Shown: in pieces, positions 25,988-37,979 of the stretch | Layout: each line of letters opens with the position of its first letter | Position numbering within the stretch: position 1 is the stretch's first letter | Assembly: GCA_020633955.1 (NCBI GenBank) | Contig: JACKCP010000011.1 | Coordinates: 24,027-88,026, forward strand | Direction: 5' to 3' | DNA: 64,000 nucleotides | Source: Desulfobacteraceae bacterium | Lineage (GTDB): Bacteria; Desulfobacterota; Desulfobacteria; Desulfobacterales; JACKCP01 | Program-made: the position numbers and the translations under genes | The notes under the pieces: model-generated | Told to the model about the DNA's origin: nothing | The model's input: the letters and a program-made list of their open reading frames with translations, nothing else | Databases searched by the model: none

Positions 25988-27775
25988 ATGAAAAAAAAGT
26001 GGAAAAATTTTTCCAGGATAGTGAACATGCTTGTTGCAGCAGGGCTTTTGCTCATTGTAACCGGATGTAACAGCTCTGACAGCGATGACGACAAAGAACC
26101 TGCAGCTGAAGCCAAAAAGAAAAATATTATCCTGATGATAGCTGACGGTTCTCAGCTTGAGCATGAAAAAGCCTACAGCCGCTTTGTAAATGGTGACGAC
26201 ATGGCCCTAACAAGCGCTGATTTTCCATATCAGGGATGGAACACATCATGGGATGTCACCACATACGATATGTGGGCCTGGAATGCGGCACGTCAGGGAA
26301 TTGATATTGACAATGAAAACTATAATAATGAACAGTGGATCATGGACCCTGGATCTCCAACAAAAGACACATATACCCAGCCTGCACCAAAATTTACAGA
26401 AACAGCCATGAATCCAGTTTTTGGCTACAACTCGAGCGTTGGGGGAGTAAAGCCTTTTCCAGTTGATGAAACAAGTGATATGGCCTCAGAGCGCTACCTT
26501 GCCATGCCACCAAAAGACATATACAACGGAAGTGAAAACGCTAAAATTGAAAGAGCCAAAGGCCGTGACTACGGAAAAAGTTTTGATGAAGGTTCTTCAC
26601 TCTATCCTGCAACAGACTCTGCTTCTTCAGCAACAGCCATGGCAACAGGAAGAAAAACTGATGCAGGCAATATAAGCTGGCTTCCTTCTGACCCTGAAAA
26701 CGGACAGATTAAAACAATTGCAGAACTTGCACGTGAACAAAAAGGCGCAGCAATAGGAATAGTATCTTCTGTTGAATTTTCCCATGCAACACCTGCATGC
26801 TTTGCAAGCCACAATGTCAACAGAAGCAACTACAGTGCAATTGCAACAGAAATACTTACATCTGTAAAACCTGATGTTGTAATAGGTTCAGGGCACCCGG
26901 ACTGTGGTACAACAAAATACACTGGTTCCCAGGAAATTTATGATTCCATGAAAAACGGAACTAACCCTGATTATGTATTTGCAGAACATGCTAACGGAGT
27001 TGACGGCAATGATTCAATACTTGCAGCAGCCAGTACTGTTGTTGCAAACATTGAAGCTGGTTCAGGAAAAACCAAGCTTTTTGGACTCTATGGAGCGAAA
27101 ACAACCCAGAAGACTGCATACAAAAACGGATACGGTGAGCCTGCAGGAACAGAGTACGACGATGTTCATTTCCATCCCCCACAGCCAAAAACAGACGGCA
27201 GCGGAGAATTTGAACGTATTGAAACAAAAAATCCAACACTTGCCGCAGCAACAGAGGCTGCTTTAAAAGTTTTATCAAAAGACAAAGACGGTTTCTTTTT
27301 AATGGTTGAAGGCGGAGATATTGACTGGGCAAACCATGCAAATGATTATGAATGGATGCTTGGCGCCTGGTACAACTTTGACATGGCATGCAAAAAAGCT
27401 GTTGAATTCATAGACCAGCCAGACGATGACATTACCTGGGAAAACACAATGGTTATCATTGCAACAGACCATGGCAACAACTACATGCGCCTTAAAAAAT
27501 ATTACGGTAAAGGACAAATCCCTCCAGGTGAAGAGCGCCAGCTCTGCCAGTCTGCAAAGCCTGAAACTGTTGGTATTAAATTCAGTTCAAATGATCATAC
27601 AAACGAACTTGTTACTCTTTATGCAAAAGGCGGAAACACAGACCTTCTAAAAAAATACGAAGGAAGCTGGCATGAAGGCACAAGAATTCTTGACAACACT
27701 CATATATTCTTTGCAATGGCTGAATGGCTTGGAGTTGAACCGGGATACTCTCCCATGACGCCTGTTTCCAAATAA
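25988..27775 (+). CDS. alkaline phosphatase family lipoprotein
   Basis: 595 aa with GGAGTGGAGGAG RBS. The lipobox is LLLIVTG/CNSS. Shows IILMIADGS, the catalytic-Ser block ATDSASSATAMATGRKT, and the metal-ligand blocks VEGGDIDWANH and ATDHGN. Confidence 0.85.
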   Translation: MKKKWKNFSRIVNMLVAAGLLLIVTGCNSSDSDDDKEPAAEAKKKNIILMIADGSQLEHEKAYSRFVNGDDMALTSADFPYQGWNTSWDVTTYDMWAWNAARQGIDIDNENYNNEQWIMDPGSPTKDTYTQPAPKFTETAMNPVFGYNSSVGGVKPFPVDETSDMASERYLAMPPKDIYNGSENAKIERAKGRDYGKSFDEGSSLYPATDSASSATAMATGRKTDAGNISWLPSDPENGQIKTIAELAREQKGAAIGIVSSVEFSHATPACFASHNVNRSNYSAIATEILTSVKPDVVIGSGHPDCGTTKYTGSQEIYDSMKNGTNPDYVFAEHANGVDGNDSILAAASTVVANIEAGSGKTKLFGLYGAKTTQKTAYKNGYGEPAGTEYDDVHFHPPQPKTDGSGEFERIETKNPTLAAATEAALKVLSKDKDGFFLMVEGGDIDWANHANDYEWMLGAWYNFDMACKKAVEFIDQPDDDITWENTMVIIATDHGNNYMRLKKYYGKGQIPPGEERQLCQSAKPETVGIKFSSNDHTNELVTLYAKGGNTDLLKKYEGSWHEGTRILDNTHIFFAMAEWLGVEPGYSPMTPVSK

Positions 27776-27808: not shown

Positions 27809-27847
27809 GTCCGGTTTTTTATTAAACCGGACTGTTTTTTTATTTTC
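27809..27847 (+). terminator. rho-independent terminator after the alkaline phosphatase gene
   Basis: gtccggttt-tttatt-aaaccggac forms a 9-bp perfect stem followed by tgttttttttatttt. Confidence 0.7.
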
Positions 27848-27891: not shown

Positions 27892-29766
27892 ATGAAAATC
27901 AATAGACATGTACCCCATTTTTTTTTAACCGGAAGTTTGACAGCCCTATTTTTTTCATCCATTTTTTTTGCGGCTGGTCTTTTAAGTCAGGCAAATTCAC
28001 TTAACAGTCCAATAATATTAAAAACAAATTCCTACAGCAGTTTCATAATTTTTTTTTCAGCATTTCTAAACTTCACCCTGTTCGTCTACCTTATAACAAA
28101 CTGGTTTTTTTACAGAAAAAACAGCAAAATCAATTCTTTTCTTATAAAATCAATTTCCTGGTTTATTTTACTGCTTACTTTATCCGGGGCAGTTATTTCA
28201 TTTATTTTTATAAAAAACCTTCCTTTTGCTTATGAACCAACAGGCTTAACCTTATTGAAATTTTGCGGATTTGGAATTTTTATTAATATATTTCCAATTC
28301 TTGTCATACAAAGGCATGCAGACTTATCTGATAGAGAAGAATTACCTTCAAAAAGATCCATTGCAGTTTTTACAAAAGCTGTTGCATCAATACTTGTATT
28401 AATTGCACTGACAGCTCTTGGTTCAGGATTTAAACTTGAAATATCCAGTGTCTTAAATCTTGGATTTACATGGCTGCTTGTAATAATTGTATATTTCATG
28501 TTTTTTGTTTTTATTGAAATTTCAATAAGAGCCTTTGTCAGTATTATCCTTATAAAAGCCCCAAAAGATAAAATCAGCTTTTTTTCCTATAATTTTTCTG
28601 CATTCACAGTTTTTGCAAAAAAAAACCCGTTTTCAGAGATAAATAAAAGTTTAAAAAAATATTTTGGCGTAGATATATCAAAAATATGGGCAATACATTT
28701 TTTTAAAATTGCAGGATTTCAGCTTTGTGCATTTCTGGCTTTAATTTCATGGCTTGTTACGGGTATGACTTCTCTGTCAATCAATGAAAGGGGAGTTTAT
28801 GAAAAGTTTGGCCATGTTGAAAAAGTTTTCAAGCCAGGACTTCACTTTCATCTGCCCTGGCCCTTTGGAAAAGTAAACAGGATTGATTTTGGAGTTGAAA
28901 AAAGACTTTTCCTTGCAGGAAAAAACATGGAAAAACAGGCCATGCCAGAGGCAAGAAAAAAACTTGATGTAGAAGCTGCAACCACAAAATGGGAAGACCG
29001 GCTGTGGGAGACATCCCATGGACGTGAAATCTATTTTTTAACAGCAAGCAACAAAATCATTACAAAACAGGGTAAAAAAGACAAACGCGGTGTAAGACCC
29101 TATGAAATGACAAATGCTGATATAGTCATTCACTACAGAACAGGTCTTGAAGATAAAGATGCAATAGCCGCATCTTATAATATCAATTCTCCTGAAGAGC
29201 TTGTATTAAGGCAGGCCGGAAGATGGGTTCAGTCTGTATTTGCCTCATCAACTCCAGAAGATCTTATTGGAACGGACAGAAAAATCCTTGGCAAAAAAAT
29301 GCTTGGAAGTCTTCAAAAAGAGATGGATATTCTAAATACAGGAATAGAAATAACCGGAGTTTATTTTGAGGCAATCCATCCACCCATAGAAGCTGCAACA
29401 TCATTTTACAACGTACAGGCAGCCCTGCATGATCTAAAAGCACAGATATCTTTTGCAGTCTCAAATTCAAAAAGAGTTGAAACAAGTGCACAGATAAAAT
29501 CTGCATCAATAATTGACTCAGCAATGGCTGATGCTGAAGAAATAATTTCAAAAGCAACCATAGAGACAAGATTTTTTACTGCGGACAATCATGCATTCAG
29601 TATTAATCCAGATGCATATAAAATTGAAAACTACCTGAATGTACTTGATGATATTTCCAGTCTGAAGAAACTATACATTGTTGATGAAAATATCCCATGG
29701 AAGTCCGGATTTCATATAGATTTCAGAAAACTTACAAACGAACCTGTTAAAATAATGTCGGATTAA
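27892..29766 (+). CDS. polytopic membrane domain (~7 TM, ~290 aa) fused to an SPFH/band-7 (HflK-like) domain
   Basis: 624 aa. About seven hydrophobic helices come first. The SPFH entry motif follows: SINERGVYEKFGHVEKVFKPGLHFHLPWPFGKVNRIDF. The C-terminal region is helical. No obvious SD sequence. Confidence 0.75.
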   Translation: MKINRHVPHFFLTGSLTALFFSSIFFAAGLLSQANSLNSPIILKTNSYSSFIIFFSAFLNFTLFVYLITNWFFYRKNSKINSFLIKSISWFILLLTLSGAVISFIFIKNLPFAYEPTGLTLLKFCGFGIFINIFPILVIQRHADLSDREELPSKRSIAVFTKAVASILVLIALTALGSGFKLEISSVLNLGFTWLLVIIVYFMFFVFIEISIRAFVSIILIKAPKDKISFFSYNFSAFTVFAKKNPFSEINKSLKKYFGVDISKIWAIHFFKIAGFQLCAFLALISWLVTGMTSLSINERGVYEKFGHVEKVFKPGLHFHLPWPFGKVNRIDFGVEKRLFLAGKNMEKQAMPEARKKLDVEAATTKWEDRLWETSHGREIYFLTASNKIITKQGKKDKRGVRPYEMTNADIVIHYRTGLEDKDAIAASYNINSPEELVLRQAGRWVQSVFASSTPEDLIGTDRKILGKKMLGSLQKEMDILNTGIEITGVYFEAIHPPIEAATSFYNVQAALHDLKAQISFAVSNSKRVETSAQIKSASIIDSAMADAEEIISKATIETRFFTADNHAFSINPDAYKIENYLNVLDDISSLKKLYIVDENIPWKSGFHIDFRKLTNEPVKIMSD

Positions 29767-29770
29767 ATTA

Positions 29771-30718
29771 ATGAAAACAATAAAATTCAGTTTTAAAAAC
29801 CCAATATCAAGAATCGTATCTGCTGTTTTTTTTCTCTTTATTACAGGAGTGTTTGCAGTCTCTTTTACAGTGAGGGAAAAACAGGCAATAGTCCTTACAA
29901 GATTTGGAAAACCAGTAAGAACCATTGTTGATCCAGGACTTTATTTCAGGCTTCCCCCGCCGGTAGAAAAAGAAGTAAAGGTGGATTTAAGACTTAGAAC
30001 AACAGCAAGCGGTCTATACTCAACCCAGCTCAAGGACGGCTCAATAATTGTAATAGAAGCATTTGTTGTCTGGAAGGTCCCAGCAAATATCGAATCTGTA
30101 AAGACATTTGTAAGTGCACTTGGAAACAATACAGCTGAAGCAGCAGTACAGCTTAGAAGTATTCTTGGATCATCTCTTCAAACAGTTGCTGGAAGCTATA
30201 CAATGCAAAATCTTATAAATACAGAAAAAAAGGAACTCAAACTTGATGATTTTGAAAAAGAACTTGCAAATATCATAACATCAAAAACTGAAAGTGTTTA
30301 TGGTGTTGAAATTAAAACGGCTGGAATTGAAAGACTGATGGTTCCTGAACCAATTGTGGCAAGTACTATCCAGGCAATGATAGAGGACAGACGTGTTCTT
30401 GCACAGAAAACAAGAAGTGAAGGCGTAGAACGTGCAGGCCAGATAATGAGTAATGCCCATAGTGAATCAAGAAGAATAATAGCAAAGGCAAAAACCAGTG
30501 CCTCTGAAATTGAGGCTGAAGCAAGAAAAAAAGCTGCTGAAATATATGCATCAGCCTATGAAAAAGACCCCGAACTATACAAGTTCACAAGGGGTGTTGA
30601 TACATTAAAAAAACTAATGAACCAACAGACCACTCTAATACTTAAAACAGACTCTTATCCATTAAATTACATTGGAGAGTTTTCACAAACAGATAAAAAA
30701 GAAAAAAAAGATGAGTGA
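29771..30718 (+). CDS. SPFH/band-7 protein (HflC-like)
   Basis: 315 aa. One N-terminal TM is followed by VREKQAIVLTRFGKPVRTIVDPGLYFRLPPPVEKEVKVDLR. The tail is an Ala/Glu/Arg-rich coiled coil (AQKTRSEGVERAGQI...EAEARKKAAEIYA). It starts 4 nt after the previous stop. Confidence 0.8.
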   Translation: MKTIKFSFKNPISRIVSAVFFLFITGVFAVSFTVREKQAIVLTRFGKPVRTIVDPGLYFRLPPPVEKEVKVDLRLRTTASGLYSTQLKDGSIIVIEAFVVWKVPANIESVKTFVSALGNNTAEAAVQLRSILGSSLQTVAGSYTMQNLINTEKKELKLDDFEKELANIITSKTESVYGVEIKTAGIERLMVPEPIVASTIQAMIEDRRVLAQKTRSEGVERAGQIMSNAHSESRRIIAKAKTSASEIEAEARKKAAEIYASAYEKDPELYKFTRGVDTLKKLMNQQTTLILKTDSYPLNYIGEFSQTDKKEKKDE

Positions 30719-31682
30719 GAAAAACAGCACGGCCTCTGCAATGGCTGAATCCATACATTTAAGTTTTAAATTTTTGTACCTTGCAATTACAATTCTTGCA
30801 GCTGCCTGGCTTTTTTCAGGGATAACGCAGGTATCTTCAGGAGAGCAGGCAATTGTTCTAAGATTTGGCAAAGTACACACAATTAAAAAGGAACCAGGTC
30901 TTGTTTTTGCTCTTCCAAAACCTTTTGATACAATAATCATCATCCCCTCACTCAAACGCCAACTTTCCCTGGAGGTAAGTGATCTTGCATTTATTGAAAA
31001 CAAAAACAATGGAAATAAAGCAGGACTTCATCCAAGGGATGACGGCGGATACTTAATAATGGGCGATGGAGGTATTTTGCACATAAAAGGAGTTATAATA
31101 TACTCAATAACCAATGCTTTAAAAGCAAATACAGGTGTTGCAGATCTTAAATCCTCAATAAGACGTATTTTCTGTGATGCTGCAATTCATATATGTGCAG
31201 GCTCAACAACAGAACAGATTTTAATAACCGAACCTGAAAAAATCAAAACGCAAATAATGAATAAAATGAATTCTGCAGCAACAGTACTCGGGCTTGGAAT
31301 TCGTATAGGAAGGGTTGACATCATGGCATCTTTACCCAAAAAGGCAAAGGATGCATTTGATAATGCTCAAAGTGCATCTGCTCAATCATCATCCGATGTT
31401 GCAAGGGCAGAAAAAAGTGCAAGGCTTTCTATTCAGGATGCAAACAGGGAAAAAGCATCTATTATTTCCAGTGCTGAAGCTGTAAAAAAAGAAATAATCA
31501 GCCGTGCAGAAATAATCACAAATAAAATACTTGCCCAAAAAGAAAATGCCAAAGGTAAAAAAAGAGAAAATCTTTTAAGAAGAATTCACCATGAAGCATA
31601 CACACAGGGATTACAGCAGGCAGGAAAAATAGTTTTGGTTCCTGATGAATCTGCATCATCTTTATTTATTCCAGGGGATTAA
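30711..31682 (+). CDS. SPFH/band-7 protein (third, more divergent paralogue)
   Basis: I placed the start at ATG 30711, which overlaps the previous stop (ATGAGTGA). The track start 30672 reads through an A-run. One TM is followed by VSSGEQAIVLRFGKVHTIKKEPGLVFALPKPFDTIIIIP and a coiled-coil tail. Confidence 0.75.
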   Translation: MSEKNSTASAMAESIHLSFKFLYLAITILAAAWLFSGITQVSSGEQAIVLRFGKVHTIKKEPGLVFALPKPFDTIIIIPSLKRQLSLEVSDLAFIENKNNGNKAGLHPRDDGGYLIMGDGGILHIKGVIIYSITNALKANTGVADLKSSIRRIFCDAAIHICAGSTTEQILITEPEKIKTQIMNKMNSAATVLGLGIRIGRVDIMASLPKKAKDAFDNAQSASAQSSSDVARAEKSARLSIQDANREKASIISSAEAVKKEIISRAEIITNKILAQKENAKGKKRENLLRRIHHEAYTQGLQQAGKIVLVPDESASSLFIPGD

Positions 31683-31685
31683 AAA

Positions 31686-33599
31686 ATGGAAACAAATCAG
31701 TCTATTAAAGAAACCACATATCAAGAAAACCTTGAAGCAGTATTAACCACTTCAGAAAAAGCAAGCCTTGGAATAAGACTGTCTTCTGCTTTTCTGGCAG
31801 CAGGTATATTAATAATTTCATATACAATTGAATATCTTGATCATGGTCAGGCTGAAGCAGCTGGATTTTTAAATGGAATAGCAGCCCTTCTTGCAGGAAT
31901 TCCTGTAATGTGGAATGCATGGAAAGGAATAAAGAGTCCTGATCTTCACTCAGTTGCAGACCTGCTTGTGTCAGTTGCACTTCTTGCAGCCTGGGTTGCA
32001 GGAGATTTAAGGAGTGCAACAATAATCCCGCTTATTATGGTAATCGGACATGTTCTTGAAGACAGGAGCATGATTGGTTCAAAGGAAGCAATAAATGCAC
32101 TTGCAAAACTGACTGAAAACTCAGTTACAAAAATAAACACTGAAAATATTGAAGAAACAGTTTCTGCAAAGGATCTTGCTCCGGGAGATTTAATTATTGT
32201 AAGACCCGGAGAAAGAATTTCTGCAGATGGAATTCTTGTTTATGGCAAAACAAGCCTTGATACTGCTCCGTTAACAGGAGAGTCAGTTCCTGTTGAGGTA
32301 AAAAAAGGCGATATTGTCAGGGCAGGTTCAATAAATCTTTATGGACTTGTCAAAATAGAGGTATCTCAGGTGGGTGATAAAACAGCACTTGGGCAGATAG
32401 TTGAACTTCTCAAAGAAGCTGAACAATCCAAACCTCCTGTTACAAGGGTTCTTGAAGAACATGCAGGAACCTATCTTCCCCTTACAATTGCAATATCTCT
32501 TATTACACTTTTTATTACCGGTGATGTTGCATCCATGATGGCAGTCCTTGTTGTATGCTGTCCGTGTGCTCTTGCAATTTCAGCTCCTGCAACAACTGTT
32601 GCAGGACTTGCAGCTGCAGGAAGACACGGAATTCTCATAAAAGGTACTGCTTTTTTAGAACAGCTTGCAGAAGCAGACACCATGATTTTTGACAAAACAG
32701 GCACACTTACAACAGGCAGACTAAATATTGTTGATATAAAAGTCTATAATGGACATACAAAGGAGGAAGTTCAAAACGCCGCTGCAAGCCTTGCAGTTTT
32801 CAGCAAGCATCCTGTAAGTAATTCTATTGCCAGAGCTTCAGGATCAGAAAACCTGAAAACAATTGAAGACCTTTCGGAAATCCAGGGTTTTGGACTAAAA
32901 GGAAAAATAAACGGGACTCAGGTTATTCTGGGGCGGGCAAGCCTGTTAGCCCAATATAATATTAAAGCTGAAATAAGGCCAAAACACTTCGGCCCTTTGG
33001 TAGCCTGTTCCATTGGAAATAGTTTTGCAGGATGGATTCTTTTGCAGGACACACTGCGCCCTGAAGCAGAATCTGTTTTAAACAACCTGAAAAATCTTGG
33101 AATAAAAAGAACACTTCTTGTTTCAGGCGATAATGAAGCAGCAACAAAAGCAGTATCAGATTTGCTGCCCTTAGATGAAACACATTGGGAAAAACTTCCC
33201 CACGAAAAACTATCCATAATAAAAAAAGAAATAAAAAACAAAAACAGGCCGGTAATGGTTGGTGACGGAATTAATGATGCTCTTGCATTAAAGGCTGGTG
33301 CAGTTGGTATAGCAATTGGCGGTTCTGGAACTGACATTGCACTTGCATCTTCTGATATTGTTTTGTTAACACCTGATTTAAGAAGAATTGAGACAATGAT
33401 TCGATTAAGCAGAAAATGCAGAAGCACAATAACTGCAAATATTGTTATTGCAATGACCTGGACTTTAATAATGTTTGTCTGTGCAGCAGGCGGATTTATT
33501 GGACCTGTTGCAGCGTCTTTATTTCACAACATAGGAACAGTCTTTGTAATAGCAAACTCGGGAAGACTTCTTGCATTCAATGAAATATCTCTGGCCTGA
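31686..33599 (+). CDS. P1B-type (heavy-metal) P-type ATPase without N-terminal metal-binding domain
   Basis: 637 aa, starting 3 nt after the previous stop. Four TM helices precede the actuator domain. Shows TGES, CPC in VVCCPCALAISAP, DKTGTLT, the HP motif (SKHPVS) and GDGINDA. The last TM reads LFHNIGTVFVIANSGRLL. Confidence 0.9.
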   Translation: METNQSIKETTYQENLEAVLTTSEKASLGIRLSSAFLAAGILIISYTIEYLDHGQAEAAGFLNGIAALLAGIPVMWNAWKGIKSPDLHSVADLLVSVALLAAWVAGDLRSATIIPLIMVIGHVLEDRSMIGSKEAINALAKLTENSVTKINTENIEETVSAKDLAPGDLIIVRPGERISADGILVYGKTSLDTAPLTGESVPVEVKKGDIVRAGSINLYGLVKIEVSQVGDKTALGQIVELLKEAEQSKPPVTRVLEEHAGTYLPLTIAISLITLFITGDVASMMAVLVVCCPCALAISAPATTVAGLAAAGRHGILIKGTAFLEQLAEADTMIFDKTGTLTTGRLNIVDIKVYNGHTKEEVQNAAASLAVFSKHPVSNSIARASGSENLKTIEDLSEIQGFGLKGKINGTQVILGRASLLAQYNIKAEIRPKHFGPLVACSIGNSFAGWILLQDTLRPEAESVLNNLKNLGIKRTLLVSGDNEAATKAVSDLLPLDETHWEKLPHEKLSIIKKEIKNKNRPVMVGDGINDALALKAGAVGIAIGGSGTDIALASSDIVLLTPDLRRIETMIRLSRKCRSTITANIVIAMTWTLIMFVCAAGGFIGPVAASLFHNIGTVFVIANSGRLLAFNEISLA

Positions 33600-33713: not shown

Positions 33714-34295
33714 TTATAAAACCCCCTTGGTTGAAGGAATAAAATCAGATTCAATTTTGCAGGCCATGGCAAGGCTTCTTCCAAAACCTTTAAAAATTGC
33801 TTCTACAATGTGGTGCTCATTTTCACCATAGAGTACATTTATATGCAGAGTAATTCCGGCATGCACAGCAAAAGCCCTGAAAAATTCCTTGGCAAGATAG
33901 GGTGAAAACGGCCCTTTTGCCCTTATTGTTTCCGGAACATTAAAAACAAGATACGGCCTGTTTGAAATATCAAGAGCAATATTTGCAAGGGTTTCATCCA
34001 TTGGAAGAAAAAAATTGCCATACCTTGCTATTCCTTTTTTGTCTCCAAGGGCTGTTTTAAATGCTTCACCAAGTGCAATCCCGATATCTTCCACTGTATG
34101 GTGATAATCAATTTCAATATCACCCTTTGCCGCTACCATAAGGTCAAAGCCTCCGTGAACAGCAAAAAGGTTAAGCATATGATCAAAAAAAGGAATTCCA
34201 GTAGAAATTTCCGAACTTACCTTTTTATCCAGTTCAAGAAGTATATAAATATCAGTTTCATTGGTTTTTCTTTTTATTTCAGCTTTTCTTGCCAT
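33714..34295 (-). CDS. hisB: imidazoleglycerol-phosphate dehydratase
   Basis: I placed the start at internal ATG 34295 (MARKAEIKRKTNETDI...). Shows the DxHHxxE block (DYHHTVEDIGIALG) and GENEHHIVEAIFKGFGRSL. Confidence 0.92.
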   Translation of the reverse strand: MARKAEIKRKTNETDIYILLELDKKVSSEISTGIPFFDHMLNLFAVHGGFDLMVAAKGDIEIDYHHTVEDIGIALGEAFKTALGDKKGIARYGNFFLPMDETLANIALDISNRPYLVFNVPETIRAKGPFSPYLAKEFFRAFAVHAGITLHINVLYGENEHHIVEAIFKGFGRSLAMACKIESDFIPSTKGVL

Positions 34296-34403
34296 TGATA
34301 AAATCCTGTATTTCCATATGTTGAACAAACACTGATGCAGCATGGTTTCTTAACGAAAACTTGGAAAAAACCAGGCAGCCTTCCAATTTAAACTGTAAAA
34401 TTA

Positions 34404-35036: not shown

Positions 35037-35675
35037 GTGAAAAAAATGAATGTCAACAATTCAATAACTCAAAGATTCAATCCCTATGTAAATACTGAAA
35101 AATACAATAAGGACACCTCTGCTTCACCTTCAAAAAATTCAGAAGAAACATCGAGCTCAGATAATTCAAAGGACAGCACCCGGGACAAAAAAATAAAAAC
35201 ATCAAAAGATGATTTTACTCCCTATGAACAGAAAATAATTGAAGAACTCAAGTCAAGGGATCAGGAGGTAAGAGATCATGAAATGGCTCATGTTGCAGCA
35301 GGAGGGCCATACATAAAACGGGGTGCAAACTATGAATACCAGAAAGGTCCTGACGGAATTTTATATGCTGTTGGAGGAGATGTACTTATAGACACATCTC
35401 CTGTGGCAGGAAATCCTGAAGCAACCATAAGGAAAATGGATGTTATAAGAAGTGCGGCCCTTGCTCCTGCCAATCCTTCAGGATCAGACAGGGCAATTGC
35501 TTCAAGAGCTGCATCAACAAGAATAAAGGCCAGTGAAGAACTTATTAAAATGCAGCTTGAAAAATCCGGCCTTGAAAAAAACGATAAAAAATCTCCATAT
35601 ATGGTTTCAGATGCCTACTCAAAATCCACTGAACAGTCAGATCAGCCCGGAAATTTAATAAATCTGTCAGCATAA
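35037..35675 (+). CDS. SprA-related putative metalloprotease family protein
   Basis: 212 aa. EVRDHEMAHVAAGGPY...YQKGPDGILYAVGGDVLIDTSPVAGNPEATIRKMDVIRSAALAPANPSGSDR matches my recollection of the SprA-related (CJM1_0395-type) family core. Confidence 0.65.
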   Translation: MKKMNVNNSITQRFNPYVNTEKYNKDTSASPSKNSEETSSSDNSKDSTRDKKIKTSKDDFTPYEQKIIEELKSRDQEVRDHEMAHVAAGGPYIKRGANYEYQKGPDGILYAVGGDVLIDTSPVAGNPEATIRKMDVIRSAALAPANPSGSDRAIASRAASTRIKASEELIKMQLEKSGLEKNDKKSPYMVSDAYSKSTEQSDQPGNLINLSA

Positions 35676-35676
35676 T

Positions 35677-37878
35677 TTATAAATCAAGCCGTTTGGTAAT
35701 TTCTTCTGCCCTTTTACTCAAATCACCGCATTGAGACTCAAGCCTTCCAAGTTCCTCAAGACAAACTTTTTTAGATTCCTGATTATTTTCCATTATCTCA
35801 AGAATATCTGAAAAATCATTTACATAGGAATCAAGAGATTCAATAAGGCTTTTCAAGTAAACATCCATGACCTGCTCAGAAAACTTTAATACATATTGAA
35901 ACTTAAGGTTTTCTCTGTAGTTTAAAAAATGATTTTTCAGGGTTGATTCAGTTTCTTTTTTTATTTTTAAAAGGCCTTTTTCAATAATTTTAAGTGCATC
36001 ATCGTTTAAGGAATTTTTAGGTTTAAAAATCCTGTTAATCAAATTTTTGAAAAAAACCATTGAAGAGCCGGCCATTGCACTGCTTCTTAATACAACATTG
36101 TAATTGAGTGCATCAAGTGCAGAAGGAATTTCAAATGCCTGCTCAAGACTGAAGTTATCTGGAGAAGGAATATTTGTACCAAATTTTACAGGATCTTTTC
36201 CTATTGTTTTCTGAAAATTGTTTCTTGTTTCAAAAACCATATATTCAGAGGATTTTGATAGTTCATAATAATATGAAACAATTTCTTTTTCCTTTTCCTT
36301 AATAAAAGATATTACCAGTGGATTAATTTCTCTTGTAACAAAATTATCAAGACTTTGTCTGAAATCCTGATACAGGGAAAAATAATTTACCTTAACTGAG
36401 CTGTCCCCTGTTTTTACAACATATTTGTTAAGTTCTCCCTTGTATGACTTTATGAAATCGTACACCATACCTGTTATTTCGGAGCTTGAAGAAAAAAAGG
36501 AATCAATCTCGTTTTTTAAGTTTTTATCAAATTTGGACTTTGATCCTTCCATGGTATTTTTTATAATATTTTTAACTTCCCTGAATTTTTTGGTCTGATC
36601 GATAAGCTCTTTTTCAGCAGTTTTATCACCTGAATCAAGAATTTTTATTTTTATTTCAAGACGCTCGCTCAACTCATTTATTTTGTCTCTAATTTTCCCA
36701 AGAATACTTGAATAAAAGAAAAACTGCTTCTTTAAAATAAGTTCATTTTTAAAATAATTGTTAAAGTCTTTAAACCCGTTTTTTAAAAAAATTGAGCTTT
36801 CCTTATCAAGCCTCCATTGTTCAAGCCTCAAAATATCTTTTTTTGAAAGACTGTCTTCATTTTCAGTAAAAAGTTCATAAAGGGCAGATATTGTAAAATA
36901 CTTTGCATCAGGCTTTAAAAGACAGATTTCCTCTGCAGTTTTTTTCTCAACCCTTTTAAGATCTTCAAGATTTTCATGTTCTGACAAATCAGCATTCAAA
37001 ACAAAAACAGACTGGCCTGTAAGTCCCATTTTTTTAAGCATATTCAAAAAAATTATATCAGCCTGTCTTAAACCTGTCCGAGTGCTTACAAGATAAATTA
37101 TAAAGTTGGTTTTTAACAGATAATCCTGAATACGGGCTATATGAAGAGGATTTGTGGAGTCGCTTCCCTGACAGTCTGCTATTTCTGTTTTTTCGTCAAT
37201 AGCATTTCCAGGAATTTCAACATAAATATCTTTTACATAAACTGCTAAAGGCTCCTGGCTTGCAAAATCCTTATATTCATCAAAATTATCACCGAAAAAC
37301 TCAAACTCTCCTTTTTCAAGGATATTTTCAAGACGCTCATAACCCTTGAGATATGACTGAAGATATACGCTTTTTGCTTCTCTTGAGTCTTTTGTAAAAA
37401 GATCTTCATTTTTCAGTGCAACAAGTACCCGATCAAGCCTTTGTCTTGAGTTTATATCCCTGATGTCAAAATCATCAAAATTACCGTTATCTTCAAACTC
37501 AGGTAAAAGAACCACTGAGTTTTTTATGTCATTATTTATTTCATCAATAGTTTTAAAAGAAACAACTGCTTTTTTTTCTTTTCCTGCCATTACACGGGTT
37601 ACAACAGAAGTTATTACCCCTGCTCCCCTTTTTAAAAAGTCAGATTTTAAAAAGGAATTTATAAATGTGCTTTTTCCAGATTTTATTGCTCCCACAACTG
37701 CAATTTTTAAAACCTGATCATCAATATTTTTATTTATTGATCCAAAAAATTTTTTTATTTTTTCAAGCTCTTCAATTCCTGATTTATCCTCAGACTTAAG
37801 ATAACTTGAGTAAATGGTTCCAAGTTCATTTGAAAGATCAATAAGTTCATTTGTTATATCAAAAGCATTGTTTGCCAT
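35677..37878 (-). CDS. bacterial dynamin-like GTPase
   Basis: I placed the start at ATG 37878 (GGAGA RBS 6 nt upstream). This gives 733 aa. The P-loop is GAIKSGKSTFINS, G3 is DCQG, and the rest is a long helical stalk. Confidence 0.8.
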   Translation of the reverse strand: MANNAFDITNELIDLSNELGTIYSSYLKSEDKSGIEELEKIKKFFGSINKNIDDQVLKIAVVGAIKSGKSTFINSFLKSDFLKRGAGVITSVVTRVMAGKEKKAVVSFKTIDEINNDIKNSVVLLPEFEDNGNFDDFDIRDINSRQRLDRVLVALKNEDLFTKDSREAKSVYLQSYLKGYERLENILEKGEFEFFGDNFDEYKDFASQEPLAVYVKDIYVEIPGNAIDEKTEIADCQGSDSTNPLHIARIQDYLLKTNFIIYLVSTRTGLRQADIIFLNMLKKMGLTGQSVFVLNADLSEHENLEDLKRVEKKTAEEICLLKPDAKYFTISALYELFTENEDSLSKKDILRLEQWRLDKESSIFLKNGFKDFNNYFKNELILKKQFFFYSSILGKIRDKINELSERLEIKIKILDSGDKTAEKELIDQTKKFREVKNIIKNTMEGSKSKFDKNLKNEIDSFFSSSSEITGMVYDFIKSYKGELNKYVVKTGDSSVKVNYFSLYQDFRQSLDNFVTREINPLVISFIKEKEKEIVSYYYELSKSSEYMVFETRNNFQKTIGKDPVKFGTNIPSPDNFSLEQAFEIPSALDALNYNVVLRSSAMAGSSMVFFKNLINRIFKPKNSLNDDALKIIEKGLLKIKKETESTLKNHFLNYRENLKFQYVLKFSEQVMDVYLKSLIESLDSYVNDFSDILEIMENNQESKKVCLEELGRLESQCGDLSKRAEEITKRLDL

Positions 37879-37979
37879 AAAAATTCTCCACAAAAAAATT
37901 AAAGCATTCTAAAATATTTATTTTAAATCATAACTCTGATAACCTGAAAACAAAAAACAATCAAAAGAGAAAATTAATC

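Follow-up and report, generated by a model that had tools for sequence, protein, structure and literature searches.

A 64,000-nucleotide stretch of a Desulfobacteraceae bacterium genome (contig JACKCP010000011.1, positions 24,027 to 88,026; hereafter the window) carries at 27892-33599, on a single strand, three genes for Band_7/SPFH proteins followed by one gene for a P1B-type ATPase, here called g1 to g4. We conclude, with a probability of roughly 0.7, that this cassette encodes an HflK/C-like assembly of three SPFH paralogues whose dedicated partner is a divalent-metal transporter. An earlier note on this DNA had proposed a functional tie between the SPFH trio and the pump, and two lines of evidence now support it. 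The order g1-g2-g3-ATPase is kept in 75 of 77 loci over deep divergence, and in a sister variant of the cassette a metal transporter of the cation diffusion facilitator (CDF) family is fused to the first SPFH protein.

The compact layout described in the earlier note was confirmed exactly. The g1/g2 junction is +4 nt (TAA-atta-ATG), g2 and g3 overlap by 8 nt (ATGAGTGA) with the g3 ATG inside the end of g2, and the g3/g4 junction is +3 nt (TAA-aaa-ATG). The terminator said to precede the cassette was found as a hairpin with a T-run; in a 65%-identical relative (L001), compensatory changes preserve the hairpin. This terminator serves the upstream alkaline phosphatase gene and marks the 5' boundary of the cassette; a convergent hisB gene lies downstream, also as first described. 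Pfam searches returned the expected domains, Band_7 in g1-g3 and both E1-E2_ATPase and Hydrolase in g4, and a phmmer screen of the window detected no ftsH, nfeD or further SPFH gene, in agreement with the claim that neither ftsH nor nfeD is nearby.

With an alignment of g1 as the query, a search through GTDB genomes, one for each species, gave 190 relatives. The best 80 of these, together with context look-ups and plasmid matches, form the locus set, which was annotated by phmmer with the window proteins; 12 loci are cut by contig ends. Informative loci (n=77) are those with enough downstream DNA, the CDF fusions being excluded, and the 75 that retain all four genes on one strand place the adjacency well beyond this genome, the question that the earlier note had left to a neighbourhood survey. 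Each position of the trio and the ATPase matches its own window paralogue best in the annotated loci. Distant g1 homologues (19-25% identity) have the identical four-gene order in unrelated surroundings (L002, L003/L004, L005), and correlations between the distance matrices of g1 to g4 lie at r = 0.94-0.97 (53 loci, Mantel 0/999), with identities down to 13-30%. By these patterns, the SPFH genes and a distinct P1B clade occur together and diverge in step, as one unit. A Pfam census of 131 flanking open reading frames (ORFs) revealed no universal neighbour family and no fifth gene or regulator; since the flanking genes vary everywhere, the four-gene cassette itself is the conserved unit.

The hosts span about seven phyla-level groups, including Pseudomonadota, Planctomycetota, Verrucomicrobiota, Lentisphaerota, Bacillota (many gut/rumen Clostridia), Ca. 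Ozemobacteraceae/Rifleibacteriota and Desulfobacterota. Ruminiclostridium hungatei, R. sufflavum and Paraburkholderia sprentiae are cultured carriers, and a tblastn search of plasmids located the cassette on replicons from cultured members of Paraburkholderia, Burkholderia and Rhizobium and on a conjugative Klebsiella aerogenes plasmid. A g1 profile search gave 2,352 clusters (50% identity) at E up to 1e-30. The best 150 of these (E <1e-88) are mostly 550-710 aa, with a few of about 400-480 aa, and many match the N-terminal region too. As an observation apart, BspA-type LRR_5 genes stand directly upstream on the same strand in many clostridial loci (17 of the 131 flanking ORFs; examples in Table 1); their recurrence is limited to Clostridia, and the gene looks like a lineage-specific fifth gene in gut/rumen members of this class.

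The association was also examined from the side of the pump. A metagenome scan with an alignment of the module ATPases yielded 80 assorted P1B ATPases, among which the SPFH trio was present only at the three most g4-like ATPases with upstream DNA (L091, L092, L094). No SPFH genes were found at pumps of the CadA type (FADVG), the CopA type (MxxSS) or the P1B-4 type (HEGS), and of the P1B groups sampled, only the clade with an H-N signature in M6 has a link to SPFH genes.

The second line of evidence comes from proteins in which Cation_efflux (E down to 8e-27) and Band_7 domains occur together (L006-L008, L071 and P0011). In these fusions a CDF domain takes the place of the six-helix domain with which g1 begins, and is followed by the linker, the seventh transmembrane (TM) helix and a g1-type SPFH domain. 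Genes of the g2 and g3 types come next at L006-L008 and L071, with L006 ending inside the third gene, and no ATPase is present at these loci. The HxxxD motifs in TM2 and TM5 of the fused CDF domains are intact, and the cytoplasmic C-terminal dimerisation domain is missing. Such an HxxxD/HxxxD pair is the transport site typical of zinc-type CDFs. By a Rosetta-stone argument, the fusion variant points to a divalent-metal transporter as the client class of the trio. No paper describing SPFH-CDF fusions was found in the literature searched.

All three SPFH proteins exceed the Pfam gathering cut-off for Band_7 (PF01145; 23.6 bits), with 45.3 bits for g1 (1.3e-11), 77.4 bits for g2 (1.8e-21) and 62.7 bits for g3 (5.8e-17). 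Their nearest relatives of known structure are the subunits of the HflK/C cage. Against PDB sequences, g2 matches HflC at 1.4e-18 and HflK at 2e-9, g3 matches HflK at 1.6e-8 and no HflC, and the C-terminal half of g1 matches HflK best at 2.2e-6, again with no HflC match. On these similarities the trio reads as K-like, C-like and K-like in the order g1, g2, g3. One might therefore regard the trio as ordinary FtsH modulators and its adjacency to the ATPase as mechanistically meaningless. The closest NCBIfam models and solved structures are indeed HflK and HflC, and the PGAP names in L089 and L090 (protease modulator HflK, HflC, SPFH or HflK, then cation-translocating P-type ATPase) agree with this, as do the Pseudomonas papers. 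We nevertheless consider it very improbable. The hflK model TIGR01933 gives 65.2 bits for g1 and 74.5 bits for g3 against a cut-off of 159.4, and the hflC model TIGR01932 gives 123.7 bits for g2 against 134.4; because all three fall below the curated cut-offs, sequence comparison places g1-g3 outside bona fide HflK/HflC. No ftsH, hfq or hflX was found near any locus (window flanks and the 131 flanking ORFs), and no g1 homologue adjoins ftsH or nfeD in the loci surveyed; NfeD has no match in g1-g4 and is absent from the top 25 families of the flanking ORFs. The ATPase stays next to the trio while the surroundings change, the CDF fusion joins a g1 SPFH domain covalently to a metal transporter, and P. 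aeruginosa has separate canonical hflK and hflC genes elsewhere in its genome (PMC13086221).

Each of the three proteins had been credited with an N-terminal membrane anchor. Hydropathy upholds this for g2 and g3, which have one TM helix each; g1 instead has a seven-TM region (6+1) ahead of its SPFH domain. The six helices of its first domain (residues 10-208) follow a positive-inside pattern that leaves both ends in the cytoplasm. A loop of 58 residues with 10 K+R leads to TM7, and alignments identify E209, R213, S234, G259, D261 and W266 as near-invariant residues of this linker. TM7 is predicted to put the g1 SPFH domain outside the membrane, and the SPFH domains of g2 and g3 are likewise predicted to lie on the outer face of the cytoplasmic membrane. 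The g1 SPFH domain has the family motifs PGLHxxLPWPF and HPP(I/V)E. AlphaFold2 models were made of full g1 and of its N-terminal domain by itself (pLDDT 80-81). The full model (pLDDT 80) has six confident helices, a TM7 helix at 266-289 and a 70-residue helix after the SPFH domain, and its top Foldseek matches are the HflK/C cage subunits 7vhq and 9cz2 (E 5e-11).

The six-helix domain of g1 resembles the fused CDF domain in position and topology, and by structural modelling it may be a degenerate CDF-like fold without metal sites. No transporter family other than the CDFs recurred among the leading Foldseek matches of both the full and the domain-only models; ZnT1, ZnT4 and YiiP were the best matches outside SPFH proteins, at non-significant values (E 0.07-1.3, TM-scores 0.35-0.45). 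An hhalign comparison with the fusion CDF domain gave a co-linear match of TM4-6 at 10% probability. The domain showed no match to Cation_efflux (PF01545) or any other Pfam family at E up to 1, nor to a hidden Markov model (HMM) built from the fusion CDF domains, and alignments of g1 have no conserved His or Asp in its TM helices, the HxxxD sites being absent. Only four of 66 g1-type N-termini matched Cation_efflux, three of them fusions and the fourth a marginal match. The assignment of the g1 domain as a CDF by sequence was rejected on the Pfam and HMM blanks and the hhalign value.

The ATPase g4 is a complete P-type core, as the earlier note had stated (E1-E2_ATPase 2.6e-46, Hydrolase 8.1e-21). 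It scores 515.7 bits with the heavy-metal P-type ATPase model TIGR01525 (cut-off 346.25) and passes the cadmium-family model TIGR01512, falls far below the cut-offs of the ZntA-specific models NF033775 and PRK11033, and reaches 374.6 bits with the CopA model TIGR01511 (cut-off 397), the P1B-1 M6 motif MxxSS being absent. Its best PDB matches are ZntA (4umv, 5e-81) and the P1B-4 pump sCoaT (7qbz, 4e-78). With P1B-2 pumps (ZntA/CadA) it shares the eight-helix P1B core, DKTGT and the CPC of M4, but it lacks their M5 Lys/M6 Asp pair: T593 and H614 stand at the ZntA positions K693 and D714, where the consensus of the clade is S/T and His. With P1B-4 pumps (CoaT/CzcP/PfeT) it shares the same core and an M6 His that aligns with the HEGxT His of sCoaT, but it has CPC in place of SPC in M4 and Asn in place of Glu after the M6 His. 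A further distinguishing feature is a conserved M2 His-x-x-Glu. Across 73 module ATPases, DKTGT is invariant (73/73), the CPC positions are kept in 72, 73 and 67, the M6 H-N-x-G in 70 (H), 67 (N) and 67 (G), and the M2 H-x-x-E in 67 (H) and 72 (E). The alignments thus place the module ATPases in a distinct clade whose signature does not fit any of the classes P1B-1 to P1B-4. His/Cys-rich N-terminal tails occur in many of the orthologous ATPases but are absent from the window g4. Separately, some module ATPases have CPG or IPC for CPC with DKTGT and the M6 His kept (Table 1); the planctomycete and verrucomicrobial forms may thus coordinate metal differently.

The identity of g4 invites the view that the cassette is a metal-detoxification determinant comparable to zntA, cadA or czcD, with the SPFH proteins as accessory protectants against membrane stress. 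The exporters ZntA and sCoaT are its best structural matches, the TIGR01512 cut-off is passed, CDFs are exporters, and one copy of the cassette sits on a conjugative Klebsiella plasmid. We judge this quite unlikely, given that g4 lacks the ZntA Lys/Asp pair, that no MerR, ArsR or CzcRS-type regulator or resistance gene is enriched nearby, and that it is zinc starvation, not excess, that induces the likely counterpart in P. aeruginosa (PMC4542158, PMC11761036). Neighbours, where they are informative, are also of the uptake type. ZIP-family genes adjoin the cassette on the same strand in metagenome-assembled genomes (MAGs) of Dyella and Rhizomicrobium. On a Paraburkholderia sprentiae plasmid it is preceded by metal ABC permeases, DUF2946 and a PCu(A)C copper chaperone, and on the Klebsiella aerogenes plasmid by a DUF4198 gene, with a Tn3 transposase nearby; both plasmid contexts are uptake-type and mobile. 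Our best guess for the metal is Zn2+, with Cu or Co also possible, on account of the HD/HD sites of the fused CDFs, the His/Cys-rich tails, the ZIP and other uptake-type neighbours and the regulation in Pseudomonas. CDF and P1B clients are both canonical exporters, whereas HmtA, the P. aeruginosa pump, is reported as an importer. A scan with the Zur-box consensus matched only in clostridial promoters, whose AT-richness accounts for an apparent 6.5-fold enrichment upstream.

The earlier note knew of no described module of three SPFH genes and a P1B ATPase. In gene content and order such a module is on record in P. aeruginosa, while the mechanistic link between scaffold and pump is absent from that literature. 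In PAO1, PA2439 (HflK family), PA2438 (HflC), PA2437 (HflC family) and PA2435 (HmtA) form one locus (PMC4542158), of which PA2439 is the first gene (PMC4542158, PMC8531726). For HmtA, a P1B ATPase, import of Zn and Cu has been reported (PMC4542158), a direction that reviews still call unconfirmed (PMC10393844). Induction of the locus was seen in a znuA mutant (PMC4542158, Table 2); Zur binds the PA2439 promoter, and PA2437-PA2439 and hmtA are induced by zinc starvation (PMC4542158, PMC8531726, PMC11761036). The proteins rise under zinc depletion (PMC11761036), and zinc chelation by N-acetylcysteine induces the three SPFH genes (PMC9431628). In 2026, PA2439-PA2437 were named PaFlo5-7 and described as a single operon with a patchy distribution suggestive of horizontal gene transfer, in a study with no mention of HmtA, P-type ATPases or metal tests (PMC13086221).

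We consider orthology of the window cassette with PA2439-PA2435 likely from gene order and protein lengths. SPFH lengths include 666, 346 and 337 aa in P. aeruginosa, 648, 345 and 356 aa in P. syringae and 631 aa in Burkholderia contaminans (PMC13086221, Table S1), and the Pseudomonas pattern resembles the 624/315/323 aa of the window. A homology search detected the g1 type in the Burkholderia cepacia complex, and 631-aa Burkholderia g1-type proteins were retrieved that match the tabulated length. No Pseudomonas protein was among the matches listed for the window, Dyella and Paraburkholderia g1 queries, which comprised only closer relatives. Accessions in the cited Table S1 seem to have been sorted apart from lengths and organisms (WP_ accessions against Homo sapiens; E. 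coli rows), and lengths and organisms alone are used here. Outside the Pseudomonas zinc papers, our literature searches found no paper coupling SPFH proteins with a P-type ATPase or CDF, and the words ATPase, cation, heavy metal and transporter do not occur in Hinderhofer 2009 (PMC2636767). The module is thus probably not wholly undescribed, its P. aeruginosa counterpart being known as a zinc-starvation locus. There seems to be no earlier account, in the searchable literature, of the coupling of scaffold and pump, its occurrence in about seven phyla, the trio's K/C/K make-up, a g1 with 6+1 TM helices, the CDF fusion or the CPC/H-N signature.

From the solved cages of HflK/C, stomatin, prohibitin and erlin, we infer that the trio would build a ring or cage of the HflK/C type on the extracytoplasmic side of the membrane, in which alternate positions would be taken by g2 and by g1 or g3. 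The enclosed membrane patch would hold or adjoin the seven-TM region of g1, whose transport-dead six-helix domain could act as an adaptor docking the ATPase inside the ring, and the assembly would confine, stabilise or gate the pump. By analogy with the hmtA locus, the purpose of the system could be the economical use of scarce metal and not detoxification. The mechanism is still inferential. Much the same data would be expected if the trio were a quality-control device, setting the stability of the pump or CDF, which it would either shield from FtsH or other proteases or present to them, without a part in transport. HflK/C, the only mechanistically understood bacterial relative, acts so on FtsH substrates (7vhp, 7wi3, 9cz2), and the conservation data fit equally well. 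However, the census of 131 flanking ORFs links no protease gene to the cassette, and the covalent fusion of a working CDF to the scaffold would be odd for a degradation adaptor; we regard such a device as rather unlikely.

Several observations weigh against a dedicated scaffold-transporter pairing of this kind. Two informative loci depart from the order: L019 has no adjacent ATPase and a rhamnosidase-like gene after g3, and in L044 the ATPase lies upstream with one gene intervening. The L099 ATPase has the M6 H-N-x-G motif and follows thiF-thiG-thiH-thiE-like genes, and the 3.9 kb upstream of it contain no SPFH gene; the H-N signature is therefore not exclusive to the SPFH module. The CDF-likeness of the g1 N-terminal domain depends on weak signals (E at least 0.07, TM-score below 0.5, hhalign 10%), and the physical cage around the pump is proposed by analogy. 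Neither a Zur nor a Fur box came up in a consensus scan of the DNA ahead of the window operon and of the proteobacterial loci. The Pseudomonas orthology is backed by gene order and lengths and not by sequence, and the paFlo5-7 triple deletion had only mild phenotypes, in a study where metals were not tested (PMC13086221).

An alternative that we consider unlikely gives the ring a different task. The SPFH ring would form a semi-closed extracytoplasmic chamber, in monoderm and diderm cells alike, and Zn2+ pumped into it by the ATPase or the fused CDF would load exported apo-metalloproteins, at a high local concentration, when metal is scarce. Candidate clients would be the upstream alkaline phosphatase (window and L001) and the M10 protease beside L003. 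If true, this would constitute a new "metallation compartment", and the importer phenotype of HmtA would be an artefact of cage-free expression. Alkaline phosphatase is a zinc enzyme, and links of the cassette to exported zinc enzymes (alkaline phosphatase, M10) are anecdotal.

Table 1. Coordinates of the cassette, its parts and flanking genes, and of selected features in related loci (locus coordinates where a locus is named).
Feature	Sequence	Coordinates	Strand	Remarks
g1	window	27892-29766	+	ORF, 624 aa
g1 six-TM N-terminal domain	window	27892-28515	+	residues 1-208; N-in/C-in; no Pfam family
g1 linker and TM7	window	28516-28782	+	K/R-rich cytoplasmic linker, residues 209-266; TM7, 267-297
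g1 SPFH and coiled-coil helix	window	28783-29766	+	HflK-like; helix residues 499-571
g2	window	29771-30718	+	ORF, 315 aa; single-TM HflC-like SPFH protein (hydropathy, PDB matches)
g3	window	30711-31682	+	ORF, 323 aa counted from ATG; single-TM HflK-like SPFH protein (hydropathy, PDB matches)
g4	window	31686-33599	+	ORF, 637 aa; P1B-type ATPase, no N-terminal HMA or His-rich domain
g4 M2 motif	window			residues H122/E125
g4 M4 CPC	window	32559-32567		residues 292-294
g4 DKTGT	window	32691-32705		residues 336-340
g4 M6 H614-N615	window	33525-33530		
Alkaline phosphatase gene	window	25988-27775	+	upstream of cassette; Alk_phosphatase 3.3e-40
Intrinsic terminator	window	27809-27847	+	hairpin 27809-27832, 9-bp stem, 5 GC pairs, then T-run
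hisB	window	33714-34343		convergent, downstream of cassette; IGPD 8.7e-64
SprA-related family gene	window	35037-35675	+	PF12118, 3e-30
Dynamin-like GTPase gene (by resemblance)	window	35677-37893	-	738 aa; P-loop motif GAIKSGKST
Alkaline phosphatase gene	L001	292-2076		upstream neighbour
CDF-SPFH fusion gene	L006	10001-11728		
CDF-SPFH fusion gene	L007	3664-5391		
CDF-SPFH fusion gene	L008	797-2551		
CDF-SPFH fusion gene	L071	1161-2918		
ZIP-family gene	L009	7486-8232	+	Dyella MAG
ZIP-family gene	L011	15432-16154	+	Rhizomicrobium MAG
Metal ABC permeases, DUF2946, PCu(A)C	L089	1-4295		Paraburkholderia sprentiae plasmid
DUF4198 gene	L090	4488-5075		Klebsiella aerogenes conjugative plasmid
ATPase with CPG or IPC	L002	13826-15745		
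ATPase with CPG or IPC	L017	13522-15468		
ATPase with CPG or IPC	L086	12959-14875		
LRR_5 gene	L022	8245-9276		
LRR_5 gene	L027	8447-9520		
LRR_5 gene	L037	8303-9349		
ATPase with M6 H-N-x-G	L099	3961-5949		

A few features of the surroundings were noted in passing. The N-terminus of the alkaline phosphatase resembles a lipoprotein signal (…LLLIVTGC), and L001 has the same upstream neighbour. In L003 and L004, Pfam weakly matches a neighbour of the cassette to Peptidase_M10, a family of zinc proteases. Beyond hisB, the window encodes, side by side, an SprA-related family protein and a protein resembling a dynamin-like GTPase, both unrelated to the cassette. PADLOC models had no match for g1-g4, and a reading of the genes as anti-phage defence was dropped for this reason.

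HflK/C with its client FtsH is an exception among bacterial SPFH proteins, for most of which no client is known. The cassette offers a pairing of SPFH proteins with a client that is genetically defined and conserved over deep divergence, and metal transporters are the client class to which the fusion variant points. The annotation "FtsH protease modulator HflK/HflC", found in hundreds of genomes, is not backed by the curated cut-offs. If HmtA works within a three-protein SPFH assembly, the earlier heterologous experiments were made without its partners; HmtA expression reportedly caused metal accumulation. Tractable carriers include P. aeruginosa, the Burkholderia cepacia complex and Ruminiclostridium, besides many gut/rumen Clostridia.

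Among known systems, the hmtA locus of P. aeruginosa (PA2439-PA2434) has three SPFH genes and then a P1B ATPase on one strand, in a similar order and with similar lengths. It differs in that a small additional gene, PA2436, separates hmtA from the trio, and in the His-rich N-terminal tail that the window g4 lacks; in its literature the trio is regarded as modulators of FtsH, and HmtA as an importer that acts alone. E. coli HflK/HflC-FtsH (7vhp, 7wi3, 9cz2), the paradigm of a cage around a membrane client, provides the best sequence and fold matches of g1-g3 and shares their K- and C-type paralogues, TM anchors, extracytoplasmic SPFH domains and long helices. In contrast, the window has three paralogues and not two, one of them with 6+1 TM helices; its proteins fall below the equivalog cut-offs and lack linkage to ftsH, hfq or hflX, and the conserved partner is a metal transporter. 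In PacL1-CtpC of Mycobacterium tuberculosis, a small scaffold encoded beside a P1B ATPase organises the pump into membrane platforms; PacL1 is a DUF1490 protein unrelated to SPFH, and the system responds to zinc excess. SPFH-NfeD pairs (QmcA-YbbJ, 8z5g; stomatin/PH1511-PH1510) likewise place an SPFH protein in an operon with a dedicated membrane partner, but the cassette has no NfeD domain and its partner is a transporter.

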